This document shows, one piece after another, positions 1-57,699 of a DNA stretch of 64,000 nt. Each line of letters begins with the position of its first letter. Positions within the stretch are counted from its first letter, which is position 1. The translations under genes were made by a program, and so were the position numbers. Source of the stretch: Trichoplax sp. H2. Lineage: Eukaryota. The stretch covers positions 1,240,001 to 1,304,000 of the forward strand of contig NOWV01000001.1 of NCBI GenBank assembly GCA_003344405.1, given 5' to 3'. The notes under the pieces were generated by a model that worked only from the letters and a program-made list of their open reading frames with translations, had not been told where the DNA came from and made no database searches.

Positions 1-3000
1 TTGCACTATTGAATTACCTAAGTTTGAACTCACAAGTTGCTATCCAGTGACTTTAGAAAGTACAAGATGATTAAGCAAATATGTCACTGTTAAGTTATCC
101 AACCGATAATAATAACAATATTTTGAGTTATATAAATCACAGATATCCATCTACTTGAACAATTCATGAAAGAGCAATCTTTACAGTAAAATTTTACGCA
201 CTATCAAGAGCAGTAAATATCAACTAGTGAAAGGATCTGCATTCGTGGAAAAGTATTTTTAGAAATACAGTATTCGGTAAATTGACAGCCTATGCCAGAC
301 TCTTATCATATGCGCCTATTACTATGCGGTAAATACTGTATGTAATCTATCTCCAAGTAATTATCTTAATCTTTAACTTATTCTAACTGTATACTAGGAA
401 GAACCACACAGAACTGCTATTTAAATATTTTTTATAAATAAATGAGACAGGAAAATGAAATATCTAACTTCTTCAAAATTTAAAGAATTGACTTGCACCA
501 TTACAAGATGATGGTAACAGATCAAATATAGCTTAGCATGAAGCGATAACAATAATACTTGTACTTAACACTACCGGTATATTCTTAATGATTCGCAATT
601 TATGGGTATAAGGCTAGGTTCAAGGTTTGATTAATGCTATAAAAGCTTTGAATTTTAGGTCTCCAATAACTATGATCTTAATGCGTACCGGATATCTCAA
701 TCAATTCAGTCACGCTGTTATAAGATTAAGACGACTTATCATTTATTTATCAGGATTTTGATATCATTAGCCAGTAAAACCTTAGGAATATAAGAAATGT
801 TTATGGTTGGTGAAATGTGTGCATAAAACTATTCTATCCGGCTATATATAGCATAGTTGTACAGTAGTATAGTCATTAGCTTTTATCTATTTTAACCAAA
901 TCTCGTTGAGGAATTTCGTCCATGAGTAATTTCATTGTGTTCAATGTTACTCGAAATTGTGATCTTCATTAGGATATTTAATTATAAAGTCATGATAGCA
1001 TACTGATTTGTAGCATTTAGCTTATAATTCCTGAAATATCTTAACTGATACCAGGACCATTTATACATATTACAATTGCGCTCGATATTAGTACTCTAAG
1101 AGTATCATTCAAGGGCAACTTCCAATCCTATAAATCTACGTGCTTCGATTGATGAGCTGAAATAATTTAGAGTAAACTTGCTATTAAAAACCATTATGGT
1201 CAATTTTTTAAGAGTATATTATTCTTTCATTTTAAAATTACTGAATTAAATAATAATAACCTGTAGAATATTTTATCTAAGATTTACAGGATTAAAATAA
1301 GTAGCTAGCGTAAACCAGAAGTTCCTTAAATTTGCTATGCTATGTTACTAAACAATAGCAAACTAGGAAATATAAATACCAATTCAATAAGCAACGTTCT
1401 ATATAATTTCAAGGTTAGTTTGCTAGGCTTTGTTTTGATATTAATTAAATAATTTTCATCCAGTTTTAGCTACTTTGAGATATTGAGTTGGTTTATTCTT
1501 TGCTTGAAATTACTTTTCAATTTAAGTTAATCACCTCTAATATATAAGCGTCAATAGGATTCTTTGCATAAATTTAGTATGTTAGAAAGATAATTATCAA
1601 TAAACGATAGTATTATGGCACTGGATACGCAGATATGTTCAGAGAAGTAAATAAGAATGATATATGATCAAATTAGAACAGACTGTATCCACTATGGTGA
1701 AAATAGTAATTGATTTTATAATATGTATTACTGAATAAGTAATAACATTATGAGATTAGGTTATATTGTAATAATGCGGATATGGTCTGCTCAAGATAAT
1801 TTGTAATTTTTGGACAAACATACTTTCTATGTCATCATAGCTTTGATAAAGAGCATCACATGTATAGTGTTTGTGAATTGATGAAGACTTTCACAAAATT
1901 ATCATCATTAAAACCATGATTATATATTAGATAAAGATATAACAACTAGATGAATAGACGCCCAAGTTGGGTGCTTTTCCAATATGTTGTGATAGAGGTT
2001 AATTATAAAATCATCTCTAACCTCATTAATAAAGTATGGCATGATTAATATACGTCTTGAAAGGCATACAAGACGCGCATAGCTTGACGTAAGTAGTATT
2101 ACTGACTACCGATAAATGGTAATTATAAACGAATATAAATATATTCATACAAAAACATATTTATATATACGCATATATTTAATTATATAACATGAATATT
2201 TGAGAACTGATAAATTAAATAAATGTGCCTATATTAGCGAATAATACTTTCATGATAGTGATTAGATTTACATTCAAAGCTACATGAATGTTTTACCCGA
2301 TATGATGTCATATTTTACAATTGAAATCGAATTCCGATTTATCTTCAAATAATACGCAGTTGATTAGATATTGAATGAATAAGTATAAAAGAATTGATTC
2401 TCTACTATCATAAGCGATCATACTCACAGAGGATTATATAAAAATATATTAAAACCACTGTTTCGTAAGACTATGCTGAGGTTAGGTATTGCTATCAATT
2501 CCATAAATATATTAGTAGAGTAGATGAAATTAAAATGGTTGAAGATTACTTCAGTTTCTATCGGAAACTGAAATAATCAGTGTTGATGATATATTCTATT
2601 ATTATATTCTACGGTATAGCTTTATCTTAAATATTTTATATGATATAGTGATCGAAATAGATTCCATTCCATCTATAACTGATATGATGTATAGTTTTAT
2701 TTAAAAGTCTTGAAAGGCAAAACCAATAAGTAACCCAAAGGTTATCCATTATTTCAGTCTCCTGAAGAATATGAAAATGCTTGTTAACTTAATGTCCAAA
2801 ATGTTATAAAAATGAGAAGAATTATTTATCTTGCCATATTTAGAATGTCTAGCATCTTTAGTCATTTCGTATAATACTATAAGTATATAAGTCGTTAGGG
2901 AAAGATCATAACATATGATTAAGTGGATCAAGCTATTCTGTACCAATACGTCCACAGGATGTATCATCTTATACATAGGAAGGCTTCCGCATAATTGAAA

Positions 3001-12429: not shown

Positions 12430-15400
12430 ATGAAGAAAATGGCCACCATGGATGAAGAAGAAGCTTGTCCAGAATTAGTCGAAGACGATGGTAGCAAAAT
12501 CCCTGTGACTATTATTACTGGATATTTGGGTAAATTGATATCCTAACGCTGTTAAGAGTCATTTCACCGGATTCTATACTGCAAAGTGATAAAATAGGAA
12601 GTGCAGCAAGGAATAAACCAATTATAATGTGTAAATAGTTGCAGTTGTTATTGACAGTCAATTGAAATTAGGTCTCCATGTTCTACTTTACATTATATCA
12701 TTACAGCAGTATTATTGTAGGATTTGACCAGAAAGAGTCTTTGATAATATCTGTAATGACCTGCTGTAGACTAAATAGAATGCTTTCGTAGGACTGCATA
12801 AAGGAACAGAATGAAGCTAGTAAGAACTATGCTCCATTTGACTCCATAAAATCACAAACTGCAAAATTATTTTAGTTATCCTTGACAATAAAGTATAGGC
12901 TTACCTCTGTATAGTAAAAATTGGACTACGAATACTATTTGCAATGCCAGTAATGTTTCATGGATTAAAAAAATATGATACATTTCTTGTCTGTAAAGAG
13001 CATGATAGAATTAAAGTAGAGATATCAGTTCTTGGCTTTATCATCAATTTTTACGAGGTGGAGATGTACCCTTATGCTTGATCTTGTTGCCATTTGCATT
13101 ACTAGACCGCATAGTCCATGCAAATTGAAGATTGCGGATAGCATTATTTCATCCATTATAAGAAATACGTTGCAAGATAGATCTTCTTCTTTTAAACTAT
13201 GTATTGTAGGTACTAGAATAGATTTACACCTGCAATACTAAATTAATGCTCAATTGATCATGATCAATGTGCTGTAGACGTAATTTCATACTTTTGAATT
13301 AAACTGAAACGATATTGGTCTAGATGTAGCAATAGGATCAGACAGCAAAGTTTATACTGCATACAAGCATACATTCGATTCAGTATATGTACCTATCTTT
13401 TCCTCCACAATGGAGGCAACAGTACAATAATACTAGTAGGCGAAGTAGCAGAACCAGAATGTTATTACTCGACTGATTATTACAAAATGTTTCCAGTCAC
13501 GATTCCATACATTTGCATTACTGCAGGTATAAAAGTAGAAGCTGACGAGAACTCACGCTATTCCCAATTTACCATAAGATTCGTGTCGTATATTTGACTT
13601 GTGCTTTCGATTAATGCAGGCGCAGGAAAGACCACTCTACTGAATTACATCTTAAATGAACAACATAACCGACGAATTGCTGTTATTATGAATGAATTTG
13701 GCCAAGGTGAGCTACTTCACGAAAGGATTATGTTAATTTTTTATTATATTAAAGGCCGGAGCTACATTTCAAGTAAAATAAAACTAATGCTACATCTAAT
13801 ACAGCACTTCAAACTTGTTTTACGGTCGACAATCTGTAGTGGACATGATATATCTTGCCTTTTTAATATGGACAATATTGCAAAAGTACTAATTTTGCAA
13901 ACAACTTTGGTACACCTAGCAGTTATACTTGATTTTTAAGAACCTTGGTAGCTGCTGTCAATGAGTTTATGAGTTATTTGCACCTTAAAATTAGCTTACT
14001 TCTCCCTATCAATGATAATATTGAGGTCGATTAGGTAGGCAACTCTATCATGCAATATAAGAAGCGATATTACAATATTTTAGCAATTAATCATTCACGT
14101 TACTCAATAATATTTTAATAGCTTTGGAATGGTATAGCCCTGTGCTAGATGAAAATGTTGGCAATATCTCCAACAAATCTCTAATATTTGTTGCTGCTCG
14201 CATAGATAGAATAATTTGCAATACAATGTCACATTTTATTTATAAATACCCTTAATTCCTTATTACTACAGCAGCATGCAATCATTGTAATGTTACACTT
14301 CAGCTAAATTATAGCTAAGTTTGTGCTAGCAAGTTAGGGAATGAAGATGTTGCAACACCAATTTCTGCTTATCTATTATTCTACCAAAATATGTAGATAT
14401 TTTCTGATGATAACGAAATAATGATCATATCATTTATTTACTCAAAAATACTGCAGGCGACTCCATCGAAAAATCAATGTCTGTTGGACAATCTGGAGAG
14501 TTATTTGAAGAATGGTTAGAATTGCGCAACGGGTGTTTATGCTGTTCAGTTAAGTGAGTATAAACAAACTATGCTTTGTCCAGCCCCCGTATAGTAAAGA
14601 CACCACATTTATAATTAATTCTTTTTACGTATATGGTTCGCTATTTGTTAGTATAATCACAAAGTGATTAGAACAGTAAATAGAGAAATCATATAAGCTT
14701 GTCAATGGCAAAAATCTGTCTTAAACTCGTGATAGTACACTATAATTGCAAATTTGAATGAGAGGCGTAGACAAATATCTCATATGTCGATTATGTACCC
14801 TTATTCGAATTTTGATCGTTAAAACCATAGAGATTCTGGAGTGAAAGCCATTGAGAATTTGATGGAAAAAAAAGGAAAATTCGATTATATTCTACTCGAA
14901 ACAACTGGCCTTGCAGATCCAGGTGATATTTTCTTATAGAAGCCGATTTCTCTTTCGTAGATAAACTATATACGAACATATGTACACTTTACCTAGGTGT
15001 GCCAAGCACTTATATATATGTTAAAAATTGCACTAATCAATTTTGATTTACCTTAGGCCCCATTGCATCAATCTTCTGGCTTGATAGTGAACTCGGATCT
15101 GAGATCTATTTAGACGGTATTCAGTTGTTGATCGTAACGACTTTGTTAAATTTCACTACGTAATGGTTGAAACTTGATTAGTTAACTATTATTTTCCTAT
15201 TTACGCGTATAGGCATTGTAACGTTAATTGACGGTAAAAATTGCCTTAGGGTTAGTTCAACACTAAATTATGATTCACAGTAAAATATCGTGTCAACGAG
15301 CTATTTATAGATATTGCTTGATAGACGTAGAAGTGATATCGATAAACTTTAATAGAGTTTAGGTGAAGAAAGACCCAAAGGAATAATAAATGAATGCGTC

Positions 15401-45302: not shown

Positions 45303-48300
45303 ATGTATCGACTCAGTCGTTACGCTCGTTTGACTACAGCCTTGGTATCGTCGAGTAGAGGCATCGTTCATCAAGGTCGACGAAGATGCGCTACAGAATT
45401 GTCAGTGGAAATGCAATCGGATTCGGCTGAGAGTAGAAATGCAATGGTGGATGCTGGTAAAAAGGGCACTATATATCAATCAGTTCTACCTGCAAGTGAT
45501 TCCTTTATCAGACGCCATATCGGTCCAGGACCACAGGAACAAGCTGCTATGTTACAAGAATTAGGCTTACAGGTAAAAAGCGTACACAACGAGTTGTTAT
45601 CTTGACTGTATTCAACAGCATAGTCTACTGTTTGTCCATGTTATTTTCACCTTGCAACGGCTCAAAAGGACAAGCACTAAATCAACTCTTGGATACCTTT
45701 TCCATCACTGGATACGCACTAACATGAGAAGTCTGTATAAAAAATTACTCCAGCCACTACCATGAACTGTCGTCGAATAAGATAACCCTATTGTCAATGA
45801 ATACAACTAGCACTCCACTATGGACAGTCAACTACAGTAAACATCATCATCATCATCAATCAATGACTTTGTCCAACTGAAACCGAGCACTCTATTGACC
45901 GACAAGAAGTAAAACTTGATCCAACTAATGCAATCCCATCTTAAGCATACGTAGTCAGGAAATGACTTTGATTGCACTACTATTGTAAGCAATTATCTTC
46001 TATTAGAAATAATGGCTGGTCAGCTACTGCACTTTACTTTCCAGGAGTCAGGAAATTAGCCACTTTTATGGTAATGGTAGTCCAAGGTTTCGTAACCGAG
46101 GTCAACTACCATGATTTTATGGGTATTTCTATCAATCCAAAAACTGCGATCACCGTAGCCCATTTCATTACTCTTTAATCGTGCAAAAGATGCCTGATGT
46201 ATTGGATACAGCAATTTCATCTTACAATATCCCATTTCGATATGAAATTTGACACATTCAATAGCATTAGATTACTAAATGATAATAATTTTATTAGTCA
46301 TGATGCAATAGACTCACAATTGGATCTTTCTGTAGTCAATTGAGGAACTAATTGACCTGTCCGTGCCGGAAAATATCCGTATAAATCATCAGTTGAATTT
46401 ACAAGAGCCTTACGGTGAGTACCACAATGGATTGTATCGAAATTTTAGAAATGTCATAGCACTTATCAACCGCTGTATAGTAATTCAACTTTTCATTTGG
46501 ATAACCTCAATGAATACCACCATTTATCCTACATGAGTCATGCATGAATGCTTACACAGTTGTGACTGAAATAAATGCCATAGTTTCTTTTGTAATTGTA
46601 CTACTGTCAATCTGATAACATCTATTACTGCATGCATTTGAACTTCTTACTATAACAGGTATTATTCAACAACACTATTGACACTTCTACACATATTGCA
46701 TCTATATCACCAGATGAACGCAAGCTTTCCCTTAGAATTCAAAAAATTGCAGAAGAAAATAGAATTTTCCGATCCTATATTGGTATGGGCTATGCCGATT
46801 GTGTCGTTCCTAAGTGTATTAGAAGAGGTCTCTTTGAAAATGCTGGATGGTAAGTGCTAAAAATGACGTACAAGCTGAATAGGTAGCAGCCAACTCAATA
46901 CCTAACTCGAAAGTATTCTTGCCAGGAATACTATCACTGCAATACTCTTAACTTATTTTATAGAAGTACATATACAGTAGAAGTAGCCATCGAGAATATA
47001 CAGTAAATACTGACCCTATGCATAAACTTTTATCAGTCGTGTACTTTAAAATTGAATTGAACGAACTTGGCGATAATACAAGCTCAGCGTTACTAATGTA
47101 GTGAGTCATCATCTGAAGCTACAAAATTGAATTTTCCAAATTATAATTCCAAGCTTGGATTGATTTCTATCTCGCAAACAAAAATTGATCAATTTCTTTA
47201 ATAAGCTAGTTATCCTAGGCAAATTAAAATTTTACGGTTATATTAGACATATTTCTTCGATATCCTCCCTGCATAAACAATACAAGAGTAGGCTGACGTA
47301 CAGTACTACAAACCTTCCTTACGTATTAATCTACTATGATTCTGATAAAATTCTAAATTTAGTGTTTATGTGCTGAATAATGCTGCGCTGTTTAATTTAC
47401 TTAATCAAGCGTACAACGCTATACAAATGTTCGAGAACGGCTAACGGTCAGCATTCTTAAACACTGTCACTTCGTATTCTCTGTGTTATAGTATCGCTTT
47501 TATTGGATCTTTAGCACTTTGTTCTAAATTCTAGTCATTAACTATAATTTCGAAGTACTAATGATAAGAACGTAACGTGCATTCCATGCTATACGTATTG
47601 CACCATTGCAAGGCATCAGAAGTATTTTTACCATTCAATTCTTTTAAAGAATGATATCTAGCGTGAATCTCTACAAGTATTACAAAATTGCTCTGATATA
47701 ACATTCTACTATCTGTGTGGTAGGCGATTCTTGATTCATACCAACATAGTTGGCTTTTAAATTTGAAGTCTTTTTCACACTTTGATCGCAACTTTAGTAC
47801 CGTGCTGGTAGCTCATATTGACCCCATTAGTGTAGACGATTTTTTATACTTTTTTTTCGACTTTCCTAGCAGTACTCATGACACCACAATTTTCGCATTA
47901 CCCATACGATATTCTCAATCACTAAATTTATGGCATCATTAGTGATACATAGTTACTAAACCTACAGTATTCCTATTGGCATCAGTTACAAGTATGATTC
48001 CCTTCACTTTATGCTCGACCACGACCAATCATGCTCATCAATACTATTGTGAGTAGAGATACACGTATTGTATGCTTATAATATTTGATTTGCATGCTTC
48101 AAATTATATTTTAAAATTTTTAATTAGGTACTGACAATAATTCTGCTAACATGATGCACAAAAATAATATTTGTTCTTGTCCTTACGACTTTATACAGTA
48201 AATCTTTCAACTATTGATTTAGGATTACCCAATATACACCATACCAGCCGGAAATCTCGCAGGGCAGACTAGAAAGTTTATTAAATTATCAAACTATGGT

Positions 48301-51300
48301 TTCGGATTTAACGGGATTGCCAATGGCTAATTCATCATTACTGGATGAAGGTACAGCTGCAGCGGAAGCTATGTCTTTGTGTTTTCGGTAAGAGCTATTC
48401 ATCATAGGATGCCTTACTTTATTTCTTGGCACATTATATTTTAGATATGTCGTGCATGTATAGAAGAAAGTTATTAATACCCTTGTCCATAAATCGTTTC
48501 TATTCAAATTTTACCAAATTTACAGTACAGAAATATACTACTGCAGGTTATATTTAGTAGCTTACATCAGTTTACACTACACTACAGATAAGCATCGGAT
48601 GTTTTACGGTACATAGTACTGATATAACTTTTAATCTGCTGTTCATCATATGCAGTGCATAAAGCAGCACATTAGAGCAATGTAGCAAATAATTAGTCCT
48701 AATATTCAGACTTCCTTAGGTTTTCAGTTTTCGAACTTGAACCAATACGTATTCATTAATTATATATTGTACCAAGTACATGCATATGTACCATATAGTA
48801 CCTAGGATTAAATTCATGTTGAAATGCGGGGCAAATAGAAGATACTCAAAAGTATTAGACGCTACTCAGCTAGTATAGCCTTCTTAAAAAAGAAATTTAT
48901 ACAAGCTAGGGTTGATGTCATGTAAATGAGTGAATTACTAAACGCTTATATTTTGTAATCCGAATGTTATGTTCAGTTTTTCTAGCATTCAGTAAGTGCA
49001 GTAGGAATTATTATTTAAATAATCTGTGCAACGATAGTACTATAGCTATCGAGATTCTTAAAGATCCAATAACATTTAAATATATTATCATAAACATCTA
49101 ATGTACAAATTTAATGATCCATAATTAAGTACTCAACGACCGACAATTTACACTCGGTATGTTTACATTGAGCACACTGATCTCTAGTACACCTCGATAT
49201 GCACTGCTGTTGTAGCCTATATGGGGACTAAATTAACTCCAATGCTGAGGTATTCGGTGTACTTACGGTGAAGTTCCGCTGATTCAATATTACTGTAACA
49301 CAAGTTCAGCCAAAAAAAACGTTAGGGGGCTACCCTAGCTTCACATAACCGTTCCTAATCAGGAGGCTCGCTAGATATCTCCCAATCGTTTCCGCTTTAC
49401 TATGCATAGGGTTGGACCCTATACAAACTGTATCAGCCGTATCTACGCATTTATAAGGTAGTCAATTATGAATTACTCCAATTATGGGATGCCGATGACG
49501 TCATCGATACAGATGGACATAAGCTTGGAAAGGGCAGCTTCTACCTTTAGTACAGTAGTCCCTGGTTACAGTATATGAATATTACTGCAAAGCCAGATTT
49601 ACGGTCTTACCACGGCATGAGTATACCTTACATTGACTTTTGAGTAGCGACATAGAATGCAATGATGGAAAAATCTGGAGTTATGAATAGCTAGGCTTAC
49701 AGTGATATCAAGCACGCCACTCGGTAAAGGGTAAATTGACTAAATTCTGTTCACTTAATCCCCTTTGCGTATATTATTTCATAAATAAATGCCGATACCA
49801 TTCCGTAATAGCCGCGATATATTCACACTATGGGCAGTAAATAGAAATACTATACTGGAGACTTAACAATTAATATATAACTTAAATTTTTAAACACTAT
49901 TATCGTTATAGGCATTTTATCAGAGATAAACATAAGAACAAATTCTTAGTGGATGAACAATGCCATCCTCAAACTATTGCTGTGGTCAAGACACGAGCTA
50001 GGTTAAGAGAATGGAAATTGACATATTTGCTTTTTCGCTATTGTTTACTATAGTTATTAAGAGATTAATTTATTGCTTGCTTTATTATAGCCCTGTTAAC
50101 GCGAAAGTAATTGTTGGTCCTTATAAAGACTTCGATTTTACTGGCGGTGACGTAGCTGGGGTACTTATTCAGTACCCTGATACCAATGGCGCTGTGTACG
50201 ACATTGAACAGTTGATACAAAAGATACATGAGAATGGGGTTTGTAGTAATTAATAATAATGTTACCTAGTGGACAAACTTTCAAAATCCACCAGCTTATA
50301 CAATTCTTATATGATGAACGGCAGGCATTAGCTGTTTGTGCAACAGATCTTCTTGCTTTAACACTCTTGAAACCACCCGGAGAATTTGGAGCTGACATCT
50401 GCATTGGTAACAGTCAGCGATTTGGTGTTCCTCTCGGTAATATTATTTGCTTTGCAATATGTTTAACTATTAGCTTTAATCTTATAGTTAGCTCTTATAA
50501 TAATGATACTATTTTTACACAAGCTATCTAATAGAAAATATGAAAATTATATTAAAAAGCCTGCTTAAATAGCATATTGTTTTAAAAAGCTCTTGTAAAT
50601 TTTCATAAAAGTGTTAAATTTCTGTGATGTAAACGTAGGTTACGGAGGCCCTCATGCGGCTTTTTTCGCTACTCGAGCAGATATGGCTAGGTTAATTCCA
50701 GGAAGAGTGATTGGAGTTTCTAAGTAAGAAAAATAATATTTTTACGCTTAGATTAAATGACTGTCACTTTCATTTTAAAAGTATTAAAGACTCCTTGCGT
50801 CATATTAACAGAGACACTGAAAACAATCCAGCCTTTCGATTGGCATTACAAACTCGCGAACAACATATTAGAAGAGCGAAAGCAACTAGTAATATTTGTA
50901 CGGCTCAGGTATATAACATAGTGATAATCACTTTAGTAACTAAAATTCATCAATGATCTCTACATTTTACCAATAAATAAATATTGTAAATCTTCTAATT
51001 ATAAATATCCCTGGTATTGAGAGGCAGTCATCGAGTTGCGTAGGAGTTACTAGCAAAGTGATGGTTTAATCTGTTATTTTCGCATCTCTAATGGCATATA
51101 AACTTACTGCAGGCATTATTGGCTAATATGTCAGCTATGTATGCAGTGTATCATGGGCCGAAAGGATTAAAAGAAATAGCTACAAGAGTACACAATGCCG
51201 CGTTATTGTTAGCCGAAGGTTAGATTTTAGCAGTTTTAACTTAAGCCGCATTTATCAATTGTATTTGCTATCTCACTAAGTACAGAACCGTTATTTTATA

Positions 51301-54300
51301 CGCTTATTAGCAATTTTCACAATTCGTTTTATAGACTGTTTCAATTATTAACACCATTTGTTACTTGGATATATTCTTACTGTATTGTATTCAAATATAA
51401 AATAGAATATTAAGTTTGCATTCGATCAAATGAATTATATCACTAAGGTTAGAACAAATCAAATTACTTTTGACTGTTAGGACTACTTCGGGCTGGTCAT
51501 CAAATTCCAGCAGAACCATTCTTTGATACTGTAAAGGTAATTTGTAATATGCATATACGCGTATACATATATCACACACAAAAAGTTTCTAATGTACGGT
51601 ATATGATCGATTTCATTAATGTACCAGTTTCTGTGTTAAAGTTCTCTTAAAAAATTAAATTAAAAATCAGATAACGCTATCCGAGAGGAACTCAACTGAA
51701 ATTATGAAAAGGGCAACCAAATGTAAATTAAATTTTCGAAAGTTCGATGAGACAACGGTACTTATGCTGAAATACGTACATTTTTATTTCTTATTCACAG
51801 TCTCCCTTTCTCCAGATTCAACTTATGTACATAGTATGACATAATTTGGTTTTTAGGTTAGCGTGACTTTAGACGAAACTGTGGACGAAAATGATTTAAA
51901 TGATTTACTTTGGGTCTTTGGCCTATATTACAACGTTGTATGTATTACAGATTTATGGTAGATATTTTCGCTTTAGGTTATAGCAAGATTATATCTTATA
52001 TTTTGCAAAGAAAGTAAATATCCTTTTACTGCTGTTCTAATACATATATATCGGATTGACAGGAAACACTAAGCCGTAAGATTGAAGCTGAAGGCAGAAA
52101 AGTTATCAGTGATGTTGTTGGCGGTCGGTTTGAAAGAGCTAGCCCATATTTACAACATCCTGTTTTTAACACTTATCACACTGAAACCGACATTGTTAGA
52201 TACATGAAACATCTTGAGAATAAGGATTTATCTTTAGTTCATTCTATGATTCCCCTGGTACGCTGGAAACATAGTGATACATACTCAGATAGCTTGGTTT
52301 TAATTCAATTTTAAATAATCTTGTAGGGTTCCTGCACAATGAAACTTAATGGATCAACCGAATTAGAGGTTAGCATTCTTTTTTAAGCTAGGAATATTCA
52401 AACTAACCTGAATTCACAAATCGCTATCTCTAATCTAGCCCTCATCTATGCCTGAATTTTCTGAACTTCATCCTTTTATACCATCGGAACAAGCACAAGG
52501 CTACCGTACACTCTTTAAAGAATTAGAAACAGATTTATGTGAAATAACTGGATTCGACAACGTTTGCTTCCAACCTAATAGGTATAGCTTTGATACTTTT
52601 AATCATACAAATACTTTAATAAGAAAATTTAAATCTTTAACTTAAAAGTCTTTGTTAATTACTTCAATATATAGTGGCGCTCAAGGGGAATATACTGGTC
52701 TACGAACAATCAAGCAATACTATGAATACCATGGGCAAGGCCATCGAAATGTAAGACGTCATTAATAAAATTAACATGTACGTACTCATGTTATGAAATT
52801 ATTTGTTCACGGATGCCTTTTGCTATATTTTAGGTCTGCCTAATACCTAAATCTGCCCATGGTACTAATCCAGCTAGTGCAACTATGGCTGGATTGAAAG
52901 TTGAGGAAGTTGCTGTTGATCAGAAGACAGGATATATTGATATGCTTGACTTGAAAAAGAAGGTTCAATCAATTAATTTTTTCTCATCATAATTGGTGTT
53001 TTGATAAGCTGTCGTATTAAATGAATCATTTATTACTTATCTTCATCTATCTTGTACTGTATTCCGTAATTAGGCTGAAAAATTTAAAGATACACTAATT
53101 TCGTTTATGGTAACATATCCTTCTACGTATGGTATCTTCGAGGAGAATATTCGGTAATTTTTAGCTTTAAATGATAATGCATACTTTTTCTGCCTCTTAA
53201 ATTATTTTTTCTATTGGTTTAAACTTTAGTGAAATGTGTGACTTAATTCATGACTTTGGGGGCCAGGTATACATGGATGGTGCAAATATGAACGCACAAG
53301 TTGGTATATGCCGCCCGGGAGACTTTGGAGCTGATGTTTCCCATCTTAACTTACATAAGACATTTTGCATTCCTCATGGCGGTGGTGGTCCAGGAATGGG
53401 TCCAATTGGAGTGTATGTAAAATTCTTTTTTTTTAAGTTGAACGATAGGTATTAGCATTAGTTGTAATCTTGAATTTGATCTTCAGGAAACGACATCTTA
53501 CACCGTTTTTACCAACCCATCCAATTACTCCTCCCGCTACTGAAGGAGAGTTACACCCTTTTGGAGTGATCTCATCATCAGCATGGGGATCTTCTGCGAT
53601 CTTACCTATATCGTGGGCTTATATTAAATTAATGGGTCGTAAAGGATTAAAGCATGCATCGGAGGTACAGTACTATAATGTGCTATGTTTGACATAATAA
53701 ATTATAACTTATCGCATTCTTGTCGTGTACAACATAGATTGCTATCCTAAACGCTAATTATATGGCGAAAAGATTAAGTAAATACTACAACTTGCAGTTT
53801 ACAGGCGAAAATGGTAAATAACCGACTGACCTTATATTCTCTTACTACAGTATTGCATCGCTATACAATATAAATATTTGATATTGATCTTATTTAAAGG
53901 TTACGTAGCACATGAATTCATACTTGATGTAACACCATTCAAAAGTGTAAAAATCGAAGCTATAGATATCGCTAAACGACTACAAGATTATGGTATAAAA
54001 TTGTATTGACTATTTGAGTAATGATTAGCGGAATTGACTATGCTTGCTAACAGAAATTATCATCAATATCGTCAATTTTACGTAATTAGGTTTTCATGCT
54101 CCTACAATGTCATGGCCTGTAGTAGGCGCTTTAATGATCGAACCTACCGAATGTGAAAGTAAAATGGAAATGGATCGATATTGCGATGCCCTCATTCGTA
54201 AGTCGTTAGTAGCTTTGCATTCTTATTAAAATACTTAAAATGCTATTTATTTACGTCGTCAATGAATTGTGCGTATGCTCAGAAATTCGACAAGAAATAA

Positions 54301-54847
54301 TGAACATTGAGGAGGGAAAAATGGATCCAGTTGTAAATCCATTGAAGGTCAGTACTTACATTCTTGCTGGTCGATTGATTGATTTACTTTGCAACATTCT
54401 GTATCATACTAAAGTGTTTTACACGAATAACAGATGGCACCACATACGCAGCAAATTGTATCATCCAGTAACTGGAATCGGCCATACTCAAGGGAGCAGG
54501 CAGTTTATCCAGCTGTAAGTTTATGGGTGTTTAAATTATATTGCTACATTAGCAGAAATCTTTTTTGTAAAATTATGTAAAAGCTACTCAGGTTTAGTGA
54601 TTTAAAAAATCTCTTGTTTGCAATCAATGTGAAAAGCTTTCATAAGCGACATAAGTTAAACTGAATCTTTATTCATTATATCTGACTCTATTAGCCGTGG
54701 TTGCGGTATAAAAAGTTCTGGCCCTCGTGCGCTCGAGTAAATGATGAATATGGTGATCGCAACTTAGTATGTACATGCCCTCCAATGGATTCATATGAAT
54801 CTAAAGCGCCTGAAGTTATCGCAGATAAAGCGAAAATGACTGCTTAA
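45303..54847 (+). CDS. GLDC: Glycine dehydrogenase (decarboxylating), mitochondrial; glycine cleavage system P protein; 27 exons, ~1037 aa
   Basis: Manually spliced GT-AG exons: 45303-45572, 46336-46414, 46714-46849, 48223-48387, 49912-50001, 50091-50238, 50325-50436, 50639-50723, 50812-50908, 51113-51218, 51481-51536, 51671-51757, 51857-51937, 52063-52257, 52327-52368, 52439-52581, 52675-52750, 52834-52962, 53074-53153, 53230-53412, 53487-53664, 53738-53813, 53900-53992, 54090-54197, 54283-54347, 54434-54514, 54695-54847 (3114 nt, in frame). Arg-rich mitochondrial presequence, [25 protein letters not shown]-lysine motif [23 protein letters not shown]-terminal [12 protein letters not shown]. 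Confidence 0.97.
49312..49319 (-). terminator. Pol III oligo-T terminator (T8)
   Basis: A8 on the plus strand directly after the 3' hairpin of the U6-like RNA. Confidence 0.7.
49312..49424 (-). ncRNA. Divergent U6-like snRNA (~110 nt, Pol III), antisense within GLDC intron 4
   Basis: Minus strand reads GUAUAGGGUCCAACCCUAUGC AUAGUAAAGCGGAAACGAU UGGGAGA UAUC U AGC GAGCCUCCUGAUUAGGAACGGUU AU GUGAAGC UAGGGUAGCCCCCUA ACG UUUUUUUU. It has an 8-bp 5' hairpin, a core colinear with U6 (AUAcUAAA..GGAACGAU-acaGAGA-agau-UAGC..CCUG..AGGA..GUGAAGC), an internal stem-loop and a U8 terminator. Confidence 0.75.
49449..49506 (-). promoter_or_regulatory. Type-3 Pol III promoter of the U6-like RNA: TATA box, PSE-like element and upstream CRE palindrome
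   Basis: TATAAAT begins at 49455, exactly -31 from the G at 49424. TCCCATAATTGGAG lies at about -65 to -52, the usual PSE position. The perfect 14-bp palindrome CGATGACGTCATCG is at 49493-49506. Confidence 0.7.
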
Positions 54848-56146
54848 GTTGATAAACATTGATAATGCGCGATATTTTGAGTGAATCGTATCTGATGATT
54901 TACAATCAAAATTTCATAAAAATTGAGCAAATAAGTCCGCAGATAGCGATTTAAATACTGAACATACTTCAAACAATCTCATGTATTTATTTGCTTAAAA
55001 TTTTAAATGGTGTTATGTATCGAATCTTTTGTTTATGACGTTTTGATAATTATGTTAGTACAATATTAGCCAACCAATTTGATTTCTAATTTAACTGGAT
55101 ATACTAAATTCCCTTGCGCACGGAAGATAGACTTTTTCGGTAGATCTGTATTTATACCAATTTGCTTAAAAGTAAAAAATCCTGCTCAAAACTTGAATAT
55201 TTAAACCCATTCTTTGCCTCCATTTGAAAATTCGTTTCTTTGAATATAATTAACGATATAGGCTGGCTCAGTTTTTAATGAGCCATGAAATTTAAATGGT
55301 CCGATCCAATTTTCTTTATATTACTGATAATGGTATATTTTGAATATAAATGACTATGCAAGATTAATGCAAACTATACTAATAAAATGTCAGTTCAGTG
55401 ATATCTGTAATCAATGCTTTTGTTGCAACTTGTACGAATCTTTTACAGGCATGAGTTTCTTTACATTATTTTAATCTAAACATATTATGTTTTCGTTATA
55501 CTTATCTATGAACACATTTAGATAAGAGATTGATAGATGGCAAATACTATTGTAAGTTACGGCATACGACGTACAAGTGTTTACTCAATATAATTCGGAA
55601 CTAATGCTGTGATCCCAACGCTTATGACGTTAAAAGATACTTCTCACTCATGAATTAAAGTTAAAACTTATCGCAACAAGCTGGTGCGATTTTCCTACAC
55701 TATAGCTGTAACAAATCTATTCAATTACTAAATTCTCTAAAAATATAAAGAAATCAAATTAAAATAAAGGACTATTAACAAGTTTATAGAAAATATGGAC
55801 GATACACTTTAGCAGTTACATCATTTATGATGCTCACTTTTAGGTATGAGTAGATCTAAGGTTGCATTAAGCCCGTATGAATAACTTAATACTGAGGATA
55901 TGTTATACATAAATATCTGCGGGTCTTTACAGGTTAAAAATGTGGAACAGACGATGCAGTATCGATAAATATAATTGACTATTACAGTTGTAGCAATAAA
56001 GTAAAAAGACCATTGTTAATCATTTACCTGTAATTAACTTAATATTCTAATTAAATTGAAACATTTCATAGGTTGTAAGCGATTGAGTCTTTAATAGATC
56101 CGAAGAAGTGATTATTACTAATTGCTTGGTAATTCATAATCATAAA

Positions 56147-56562
56147 CTCTTTAAGTTTGCTATACTAAGATTCAAGAATACAGTATATGATACCAATGCT
56201 GGCTTACTAAAGATTGTAGGGAAGTACAGATGCACATACCGCTTTCATTTTACAACTATTCAGTATATTACATCCATTCATATCTATACTCAAACAATCG
56301 ATGCTACAAGAAGACCTTTTTCTAATCTAAAATATAATATGTAGTAGTATATCAACACTCTCAAGTTTGCTATACTAAGATTCAAGAATATACGATACTA
56401 ATGCTGGCTTACTAAAGATTGTAGGGAAGTACAGATGCATATACCACTTTCATTTTACAACTATTCAGTACATTACATCCATTCATATCTATGCTCAAAC
56501 AATCGATGCTACAAGAAGACCTTTTTCTAATCTAAAATATAATATATTGTAGTATATCAACA
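56147..56562. repeat. Recent tandem duplication, 2 x ~210 bp
   Basis: AAGTTTGCTATACTAAGATTCAAGAATA...CTAAAATATAATAT is repeated almost identically at ~56150 and ~56363. Confidence 0.9.
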
Positions 56563-57699
56563 ATCTATGTTAAGTTATCTACGTTGTTGATGGTGTTGAA
56601 AAGCACCACTTGATTATGATCCCATAAATTATTTATCATTATTTTTCCTATGCTTCTTTACCAAATAATAAATGTACGACATGCACAAGTAGTCTATACC
56701 AGTATCTGAAAACAAGTCCTGTTAGAAAATAACTTCTGTGACTAAAGTACGTTACCACTAATTATTTAATACACCTTTAATTAAGCAGATCAATTCCATA
56801 GACCTTGATTTGTAGATATGTATACATCATTTTTAATTACTATCTATGCAGTATACAAGCATTTAATTAACAATTCATGTAAAAACAAAAAGTTCTTCCC
56901 GACTAAAGTAATAAGTCGGGACAATAAATAATTTATAAGGCTATGGCGATGTTGTACTCTCTGCATGGGAAATGTAGCTATCAACGTGAGAAAATATCAA
57001 TTGACTAAGTTAGGTATTGGTCTATAAATTAGCCTATCAATCGTAGTATTGCAGCAATGACGATACATTAATTCTTTGGTTGTCATAGAAACTGAAAATG
57101 CTAATTAACATTGTAAAAATGTTCATGGCCACATCTGTTATAAACAATCAATTCCTCGGGTGGGATGGAATGTTAGCAGCAAACTAGCCTACAGCAACAA
57201 AAGAGTTAGAGCATACAATTCAATATAAATTAATTCATTATTAATAACAAAAAAAAAGACTTTCATTTTACATTTATTATAGTTAGGATGGATAGCGAAG
57301 CCAATCCGTTGACGATGGTTATGCTAGTTTTGTGCCCTAACTGCAATTAATAATCTCTAGTTTATCGCCTTCTGAACAGCATTGAGCTCTGGCATTAAAC
57401 AACTGTTTTTGATCGAATGATCACTTCATTGCTGCTGTAAACATTAGAACTTAAAGGAAAGGTAAGTTTTTCTTAAATGATCGACAGGGAAGATGTACTG
57501 GATAGATAGTAAATGGTGAGTATTTACTGTTCATTTTCATAAAACGTGAAAGAAAATTGATTTTTGTTTATAATTACGTATGATATTCTAAATGTGATCA
57601 AAAATTGGGGATGTAAAATTGCGTTTGCCTGACATTATCAATCTATGAATAGCTTTTATCACCTTTACCTCGTCTTCATGACTTTGGGATAGTATAGTG

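Follow-up and report, generated by a model that had tools for sequence, protein, structure and literature searches.

A candidate type-3 RNA polymerase III gene for a diverged U6 paralogue inside intron 4 of the Trichoplax GLDC gene

In a stretch of 64,000 nucleotides from Trichoplax sp. H2 (GenBank assembly GCA_003344405.1, contig NOWV01000001.1, positions 1,240,001 to 1,304,000; this whole stretch is the window, and all positions below are counted from its first letter) we analysed a compact unit at positions 49312-49490, which lies antisense, on the minus strand, inside intron 4 of GLDC. The unit is best read as a real type-3 RNA polymerase III (Pol III) gene for a diverged paralogue of the spliceosomal RNA U6, and we assign this reading a probability of about 0.5. 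U6 is the most conserved of the spliceosomal RNAs and forms the active site; to our knowledge its sole natural alternative is U6atac. If the reading is true, a paralogue with the catalytic elements, a changed splice-site box and a changed U4 pairing would represent either a new flavour of spliceosome or a re-used U6 gene. The unit is probably a transcribed gene, and its descent from U6 is favoured almost to the same degree. A catalytic role in splicing is doubtful.

The candidate was compared with 10 distinct canonical U6 genes, obtained from a scan of prokaryote assemblies with an 18-nt U6 core that returned 20 loci. The animal-type reference among them, U6_L007 (L007, positions 1089-1195, minus strand), scores 117.9 bits against the Rfam U6 model RF00026. 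When the candidate is aligned with the ten genes by MAFFT, zero gaps fall into it across its 113 nt, and the columns invariant in the candidate and all ten genes include G33, A35, C37-T40, G44-A47 and T52-C55, among others (numbering within the body, with G49424 as nt 1). The identity to U6_L007 is 58/111 columns (52%; 9/21, 24/39, 12/26 and 7/17 by region), and 38-47% to the other nine genes.

A gapless comparison of the candidate with U6_L007 at offset 0 from the +1 position defined by the TATA box gives identities of 33/60, 41/77 and 49/105. Each of the three values is the single highest of the roughly 127,800 positions on both strands of the window (runners-up 31, 37 and 46), and 33/60 is reached at 1 of 127,882 positions, namely the candidate site. 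Offsets of 1-4 nt to either side give only 9-19/60. The register is the telling part of this similarity: the best match is found at offset 0 from a start that the TATA box predicts independently, and the first bases of GAGA and AGC are nt 44 and nt 53, respectively, in the candidate as well as in U6_L007. The gapless core register with U6 that had been proposed in the preliminary description of this DNA is therefore real, by the alignment as well as by the offset test.

In U6 the 5' splice site is recognised, at intron positions +4 to +6, through the ACA of the ACAGAGA box, and GUGAAGC in animal-type U6 is the helix II strand, which pairs with the 5' end of U2. Relative to U6 the candidate retains AACGAU 5' of the box, the final GA of GAGA and, after a spacer unchanged at 5 nt, the AGC triad; it also retains the GUGAAGC that had already been noticed near the 3' end (nt 81-87), and the U tail. 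Changed are ACA, which is replaced by UGG, the AGAU of helix Ia, which is replaced by UAUC, and the sequence of the internal stem-loop (ISL) and U4 stem II, which is invariant in 10/10 canonical genes. The core of the candidate reads GAU-UGG-GAGA-UAUC-U-AGC (nt 38-55). The last GA of the GAGA box is the part that forms the catalytic triplex with AGC in U6 (PMC5855946).

A perfect 8-nt palindrome, AGAUAUCU (minus strand, 49373-49380, corresponding to nt 45-52), reaches from the last bases of the GAGA box across the position of helix Ia. It may serve for pairing from molecule to molecule or as a protein site.

As in U6, the unit ends in an oligo-T terminator and has the external promoter of the type-3 Pol III genes, in which an element resembling the proximal sequence element (PSE) is combined with a TATA box close to -30 (Table 1). 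The PSE-like element, TATAAAT at -31, the G start and T8 are all present in the sequence where the preliminary description had placed them. The 5' hairpin followed by AUA, described as 8 bp long, measures 9 bp (8 Watson-Crick pairs and one G.U), and the body, estimated at about 110 nt, has 105 nt (49424-49320). The promoter element ATCCCATAATTGGAG fits the upstream sequence element (USE) cores RTCCCWTA and CCCRTAA and most of ACCCATAA, cores which belong to distant eukaryotes; the published cores of this kind are CCCRTAA, ACCCATAA, AACCCRTAA and RTCCCWTA (PMC8287931). The upstream word ATCCCATAA likewise agrees with published USE cores of other eukaryotes. Between the 11-nt USE-equivalent and the TATA box there is a gap of 24 nt; in Arabidopsis a USE-TATA spacing of 23-24 bp is reported for Pol III and one of 32-34 bp for Pol II (PMC8287931), and in human U6 genes the TATA box lies about 30 bp upstream (PMC5855946). 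Of the earlier PSE claim it can be retained that the element fits SNAPc-type USE cores of other eukaryotes and stands at Pol III spacing from the TATA box (PMC8287931). For Trichoplax itself, Hertel et al. reported Pol II and Pol III snRNA genes with a clear common PSE (PMC2655684). The combination TCCCWTA followed by TATAWAW 24-30 nt further on occurs once in the window (0.19 expected), and the octamer TGACGTCA also once (0.49 expected). The palindrome CGATGACGTCATCG with this octamer of the cyclic AMP response element (CRE) type may be an upstream enhancer.

Table 1. Features of the candidate unit and of its host intron (positions in the window; nt, position within the predicted transcript)
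Feature	Position	Strand	Basis
Host intron (GLDC intron 4)	48387..49910	+	RNA contig joints and tblastn exon order
Perfect 14-bp palindrome CGATGACGTCATCG with CRE-type octamer TGACGTCA	49493..49506 (about -82..-69)		blastn self-hit
PSE/USE-like element ATCCCATAATTGGAG	49476..49490 (-66..-52)	minus	sequence
TATA box TATAAAT, first T at -31	49449..49455	minus	sequence
G start (+1)	49424	minus	sequence
Predicted transcript body, 105 nt, no T4 runs	49320..49424	minus	sequence
5' stem-loop, nt 1-21, 9 bp and triloop	49404..49424	minus	folding energy against shuffles
Telestem-like helix, 5' strand GGAAACG, nt 32-38; partner nt 104-110	49387..49393	minus	minimum free energy fold
UGGGAGA, nt 41-47, at the place of the ACAGAGA box	49378..49384	minus	MAFFT alignment
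AGC triad, nt 53-55, 5 nt 3' of GAGA	49370..49372	minus	invariant alignment columns
ISL-like hairpin, nt 57-78	49347..49368	minus	folding energy against shuffles
GUGAAGC, nt 81-87	49338..49344	minus	sequence; same heptamer in U6_L007
Possible extra 3' hairpin, UAGGG/CCCUA stem, nt 88-102	49323..49337	minus	folding energy against shuffles
T8 Pol III terminator	49312..49319	minus	sequence

Further promoter-like words were seen around the unit. On the minus strand, at about -239 (49657-49663), ATTGCAT lacks a single base of the octamer ATTTGCAT; the distal element of vertebrate U6 genes lies at about the same distance. A second PSE-like word, GTCCCCATATAGG, is found at 49216-49243 on the minus strand, 80-100 bases downstream of T8, and is preceded by ATTGGAGTTAATT, nearly a repeat of the ATTGGAGTAATT in the first element. 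The second word is not followed by a TATA box, and no Rfam hit lies there; about 100 nt beyond it the string AAAUUUGUA bears a loose likeness to an Sm site. The second occurrence of TCCCATAA, at 56620, was considered and rejected, as nothing gene-like follows. A 10-bp direct repeat, CAGTAATATT (49587-49578 and 49295-49286 in minus-strand reading), was judged compatible with chance.

The predicted folds agree with the kinship in part. The 5' hairpin (nt 1-21) has a predicted energy of -10.9 kcal/mol with a z-score of -4.39, none of 200 shuffled sequences being as good, and AUA follows it directly. For the whole 113-nt RNA the minimum free energy (MFE) is -34.4 kcal/mol (z -2.12, 7/200 shuffles as good; opposite strand z -1.31), compared with a z-score of -1.37 for U6_L007. 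The MFE folds of the candidate and of U6_L007 agree in topology. In each an unpaired linker connects the 5' hairpin with a long-range helix that has nt 38 as the last base of its 5' strand and the beginning of the U tail in its 3' strand, and inside this helix an extended stem pairing the AGC region carries an apical ISL hairpin on its top. The long-range helix corresponds to the telestem of the U6 literature (PMC5855946); in the MFE fold of the candidate its 3' strand, nt 104-110, consists of CG and the first bases of the U tail. Compared with U6, the candidate builds both the telestem and the extended ISL pairings from other bases. This shared topology from different bases is suggestive of U6 kinship, as far as predicted folds can tell. 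The ISL-like hairpin is predicted with an upper and a lower stem of 4 bp each, a GAUU loop and, on the 3' side, a bulge of 2 nt (-6.2 kcal/mol).

The 5' and the possible 3' hairpin (49404-49424 and 49323-49337) have one stem in common, UAGGG/CCCUA, and 11/17 of their aligned bases are identical. Both strings of this stem are also contained in the TTAGGG/CCCTAA telomere repeat. The hairpins could exchange strands, with the 5' strand of one paired to the 3' strand of its counterpart, which would give an alternative end-to-end fold.

The same observations bear on the alternative that the unit is a non-functional relic, that is, an old duplicate of a U6 gene together with its promoter, made at the DNA level and now in decay, either silent or transcribed without function. 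An identity of only 52% to an animal-type U6, the loss of key boxes (ACA and the U4-pairing sequence) and the absence of a profile match would all fit such a relic. Decay to about 50% identity should, however, also have broken the promoter, the terminator and the helices, whereas TATAAAT, the USE-like core with its 24-nt spacing, T8 and the T4-free body are all intact. In the 5' hairpin 12/21 bases differ from U6_L007, and yet its 9-bp stem is perfect; the telestem and the extended ISL pairings have been re-formed with different bases. A retroposed copy, in turn, would carry no upstream type-3 promoter. We consider a relic unlikely; should the unit prove silent, it would still usefully illustrate how misleading a pattern of promoter plus terminator can be.

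How often such a unit arises by chance was assessed with 200 simulated windows, a unit being defined as a TATA box, a purine start and a T5 run within 70-350 nt, without an internal T4. The real window holds 66 such units and the simulated windows 91 on average, so that the promoter and terminator frame taken alone is not beyond chance. In the simulated windows units with a 5' hairpin of at least 8 bp occur 1.2 times per window and units with GAGA-N5-AGC 0.35 times per window, and in 0/200 windows were both found in one unit. The only unit with both in the real window is the one starting at 49424. These tests were devised after the unit had been seen; nevertheless, because the margin is large, we judge chance to be an unlikely origin of the combined unit, which is beyond chance in these simulations. 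Other units with a TATA box and a hairpin (starts at 14584, 46934 and 49851) were rejected, since they have neither a U6-like core nor another notable feature. The minus-strand site 34044, which like the candidate shows 24/39 identities to U6 nt 22-60, was rejected as it lacks promoter, hairpin and terminator.

A pure coincidence would mean that AT-rich motifs (a TATA box and a T run), a chance hairpin and a chance U6-like string have come together where there is no gene. The chance frequency of the frame (66 versus 91), the identity at site 34044, best-in-window identities that resemble those of simulated windows, and the selection of the feature after the fact by a reader in search of such things are all points in favour of a coincidence. 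We still regard it as improbable: the combination was absent from all 200 simulated windows, site 34044 has no other feature of the unit, the register falls exactly on the start site, the 5' hairpin is far more stable than its shuffles, the fold topology equals that of real U6, and the 113-nt unit, T8 included, has a GC content of 0.46 within an intron of 0.35.

By the standard Rfam definition the unit is neither canonical U6 nor U6atac, as the preliminary description had it. A scan of the window with Rfam gave no match at the gathering score, which is 44 bits for U6, and real U6 genes reach 59-118 bits in the same test. The Rfam U6 model contains base pairs only in the 5' hairpin and is otherwise a sequence profile; for this reason a diverged relative scores nothing. 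Concerning the hallmarks of U6, ACAGAGA is invariant in 10/10 canonical genes and the candidate keeps 4/7 of its bases (GAGA). It does have the AGC triad 5 nt downstream of the box and a 5' terminal stem-loop of 9 bp, and AUAUAC, the U6 capping motif after this stem-loop, is partly kept as AUAGUA. As for U6atac, there is no RF00619 match at E<=10, a strong 5' stem-loop is present and the box is AUUGG. A tRNA or selenocysteine tRNA gene was rejected, as ARAGORN found 0 genes in the window and Rfam gave no match, and a repeat or transposon was rejected because the unit is single copy when the window is compared with itself by blastn. A search of metagenomes with a 20-nt string of the candidate core returned 3 loci, which form one unrelated GC-rich family with unlike flanks and were taken as chance matches.

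Many of the 20 loci from which the reference genes were drawn are eukaryotic contaminant contigs with snRNA gene clusters in prokaryote assemblies. Seven loci filed as bacterial metagenome-assembled genomes (L004, L006, L009, L011, L017, L020 and L022) hold dense clusters of eukaryotic U1, U2, U4, U5 and U6 genes, along with genes for SRP RNA, 5S rRNA and tRNA. They are eukaryotic contamination of prokaryote bins, probably from protists.

Several results weigh against a U6 paralogue, first of all those from the sequence comparison. In 300 simulated windows the mean maximum identities are 32.1, 37.7 and 47.9 for the three lengths compared above, so that the similarity is not significant window-wide, and when the cores of five other U6 genes, all non-animal, were used, the candidate ranked first in a single case, which was a tie. 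Neither the ACA in the box nor the sequence that pairs with U4 has been kept, and the bulged base of the ISL is not a U. No Rfam family matched at E<=10 when 49100-49700 (601 bases) or the 121-nt body alone was searched, and with a profile of the 10 U6 genes nhmmer (filters off, E<=1000) gave 11 weak matches in the window and 0 at the candidate. Apart from the 5' hairpin and the telestem, the predicted structure does not stand out from shuffles either: the ISL-like hairpin has a z-score of -1.71 (15/200 shuffles as good) and a sequence unlike the invariant canonical ISL, the 3' hairpin (nt 88-102) has -5.8 kcal/mol and a z-score of -1.0 (36/200 shuffles as good) and is not formed in the MFE of the whole molecule, and the body without 5' hairpin and tail is no more stable than its shuffles (z -0.12). 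Of the preserved hairpins that had been claimed, the 5' one holds statistically, in contrast to the ISL-like hairpin, the 3' hairpin and the body as a whole.

The stretch is contained in 20 of 24 listed runs, which come from two coded organisms with near-identical sequence, and is natural DNA. Four runs (X18, X7, X12 and X15) were compared base by base, all as assembled contigs; X18 is random-primed RNA, and X12 has no splice joints and is DNA-like. The contigs of X18, X7 and X15 span the whole intron at a depth of 5.7-22, compared with 190-355 on the exons. Such low depth across the intron is the pattern of a retained intron or of pre-mRNA and hides any small RNA, which contigs cannot reveal. 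In X18 the contig with the unit has a depth of 22.3 and its neighbours 12.3 and 18.3; as depth is a mean over the whole contig, this is uninformative on expression. Within the intron the runs differ from the window at 48601, 49164, 49301, 49311 and 49491 and at 0 positions within 49312-49490, and the latter is uninformative too, given that only about 0.7 differences would be expected there. The terminator is T9 in the X18 and X7 contigs, owing to a one-base insertion behind 49311.

Y RNAs have a terminal stem of 5' and 3' end with a bulged C, vault RNAs have internal A and B boxes, and the 5' hairpin of 7SK has a GAUC motif. The unit could encode a small RNA of such another Pol III class, or of a new class limited to placozoans, and would then have no role in splicing; its U6 likeness would consist of biogenesis signals, namely a 5' hairpin for gamma-methyl capping and a U tail for La or LSm binding, plus chance. 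This is a lesser possibility which deserves to be taken seriously. The unit fits no Rfam family, its U6 similarity is not significant across the window, and the UAGGG/CCCUA stem of both terminal hairpins is absent from U6 and could be the binding site of another protein. Moreover, a 2009 survey gives Y RNA, vault RNA, 7SK and U7 as not found in Trichoplax, the first three being nonetheless expected (PMC2655684); a later paper states that evidence for a Trichoplax 7SK exists, citing Marz et al. 2009 (PMC10848712). The identity to U6, however, sits in the catalytic core (CGAU, GAGA, UAGC) and not in the capping and tail signals, and its register is exact to the start site (33/60 at offset 0 versus 9-19 nearby). 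By eye the candidate has neither the Y-type terminal stem with bulged C nor a vault A/B box nor the GAUC motif of 7SK, and the Rfam models of these families gave no match at E<=10.

We also considered a placozoan telomerase RNA made by Pol III, with AACCCUA and CCCUAAC as a template resembling the telomere C strand. The body does contain two 7-mers of the CCCTAA repeat (nt 12-18 and 98-104), and telomerase RNAs driven by type-3 Pol III promoters are reported from plants, ciliates and Hymenoptera (PMC8287931). The telomerase RNA described for Trichoplax adhaerens, however, has T-PK and CR4/5 domains and belongs to the animal H/ACA type (PMC8480181), and the candidate, with 105 nt, falls below the 135 nt of the smallest telomerase RNA known (PMC11892584). 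Telomerase RNAs are marked by an unpaired template of one repeat plus one base or more and by a pseudoknot, in animals also by CR4/5 and H/ACA domains. No pseudoknot was seen in the candidate, and both of its telomere-like strings are only 7 nt long and lie inside hairpin stems. The explanation was rejected, and we give it next to no weight.

The pairing of the candidate with U2 and U4 was evaluated with stand-in U2 and U4 sequences from the contaminant contigs. On GCUAAGAU of the stand-in U2 a pairing of 7 bp is predicted for the helix I segment, with a single bulged base and in a register shifted by one base; its energy is -6.1 kcal/mol compared with -5.3 for canonical U6, and 6.5% of shuffles are as good. 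For helix II the value of -3.6 is not better than that of shuffles. With three stand-in U4s the core gave shuffle fractions of 0.013 (L017), 0.30 and 0.20, and the short U4-pairing segment, compared with the L017 U4 only, a fraction of 0.010. By eye, the canonical U4 stem II pairing is broken in the candidate. Long-range RNAduplex predictions of the 54-nt cores with U4 and U2 gave unrealistic structures and were not used as evidence.

We propose that the unit is an independent small-RNA gene with an external type-3 promoter (SNAPc and TATA), whose transcript would be about 105-110 nt long and have a U tail at its 3' end. After transcription by Pol III the U tail would be bound by La and then by LSm2-8, and the 5' hairpin would be bound as in U6. 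Pairing with U2 would still be possible through a helix I shifted by one base, and the canonical U4/U6 stem II could not form. Such an RNA might work in catalysis, as a variant snRNA which prefers other 5' splice sites and has its own partner. Alternatively, it might form a U6-like ribonucleoprotein that competes for U6 or U2 factors.

In the most far-reaching form of this proposal, placozoans would have a third U6-class catalytic snRNA beside U6 and U6atac, which would read 5' splice sites of its own via UGG. The metal-binding core (GAGA, AGC and ISL) and U2 helix I would be kept, and the RNA would have its own U4-like chaperone or none. If true, this would be a previously unseen splicing sub-system in an early-branching animal. 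We consider it quite unlikely. The third class of U6-family RNA suggested by the preliminary description is treated here as a live hypothesis and not as a result, because the similarity to U6 is not significant window-wide and, of the hairpins, the 5' one alone stands out from its shuffles.

Canonical U6 and U6atac are indeed reported from elsewhere in Trichoplax, a point that had been left for checking. By blastn, full sets of major and minor snRNAs were reported, with two U6 genes (PMC2655684), and U6atac was described with a [GU]CCGA box as a 'CC variant' (PMC2396436). Because both housekeeping RNAs are reported, the unit is to be regarded as an additional gene and not as the U6 or U6atac of this animal. 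The 'CC variant' box is at odds with the accepted pairing of the U12-type 5' splice site (PMC2396436), a puzzle on which extra U6-family RNAs in Trichoplax would bear. A probe for the canonical U6 core detects Trichoplax U6 transcribed in vitro from the published sequence (PMC6239192); by our own count the candidate differs from it at 12/30 positions. No description of the candidate RNA was found in the literature searched, which concerned U6-like variants, the PSE and the U6 promoter of Trichoplax and surveys of placozoan small RNAs; the supplements of the cited papers may list further Trichoplax noncoding RNA candidates.

The host gene was established by protein similarity and by splice joints. 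The peptide of the exon 53231-53413 is 100% identical to TRIADDRAFT_27926 of Trichoplax adhaerens (NCBI protein), and tblastn with this protein finds GLDC exons from 45444 to 54844 on the + strand. The unit is assigned to intron 4 because tblastn puts four coding exons 5' of the gap which holds it. The joint 48386>49911, with GT..AG ends, is present in RNA contigs of three of the four runs (X18, X7 and X15, from three studies). A patch of the intron at 49187-49686 has a GC content of 0.38-0.45, compared with 0.26-0.37 elsewhere in the intron. One X7 contig, of depth 5.7, shows the alternative joint 49729>49911 (+ strand, GT..AG, 181 bases skipped), which may reflect either a rare splice form or recursive splicing within intron 4. 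Downstream of GLDC a tandem duplication of about 290 bp was observed at 56087-56552 (+ strand), with two neighbouring open frames of near-identical translation (...YDTNAGLLKIVGKYRC.YRFHFTTIQYITSIHIY.QTIDATRRPFSNLKYN..).

Among known systems, the type-3 (SNAPc-dependent) Pol III genes, that is those of U6, 7SK, RNase P and MRP RNA and of the plant and ciliate telomerase RNAs, share with the candidate a USE/PSE core of the xCCCATAA type, the 24 nt between USE and TATA box, the TATA box at -31, an oligo-T terminator and the absence of internal A and B boxes. The candidate is set apart from them by its RNA body, which fits no described family of the class.

With U6atac (RF00619) the candidate has in common that it would be a Pol III RNA of the U6 family with GAGA, a 5-nt spacer and AGC, that an ISL is predicted, that GAGA is preceded by three bases other than those of U6, and that there may be an extra 3' stem-loop, as described for U6atac (PMC5855946). 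In contrast to the candidate, whose core lies at nt 41-55, U6atac starts without a 5' stem-loop and has its core close to the 5' end (PMC5855946), and the box of the candidate is neither AAGGA nor the [GU]CCGA of Trichoplax U6atac (PMC2396436).

From U6 (RF00026) the candidate differs in lacking an Rfam match, in UGG for ACA and UAUC for AGAU, in the replaced sequence of the ISL and U4 stem II, in an ISL with a loop of 4 nt and the bulge AC, in the possible extra 3' hairpin, and in GUGAAGC starting at nt 81 instead of nt 89 as in U6_L007. It resembles U6 in the external TATA/PSE promoter, the T-run terminator and the length of about 105 nt; in the 5' stem-loop at nt 1-21, GAGA at nt 44-47, the 5-nt spacer, AGC at nt 53-55, AACGAU, GUGAAGC and a predicted helix I complementarity to the stand-in U2; and in the predicted topology, where the 5' stem-loop is followed by a telestem that ends at nt 38 and encloses the ISL.

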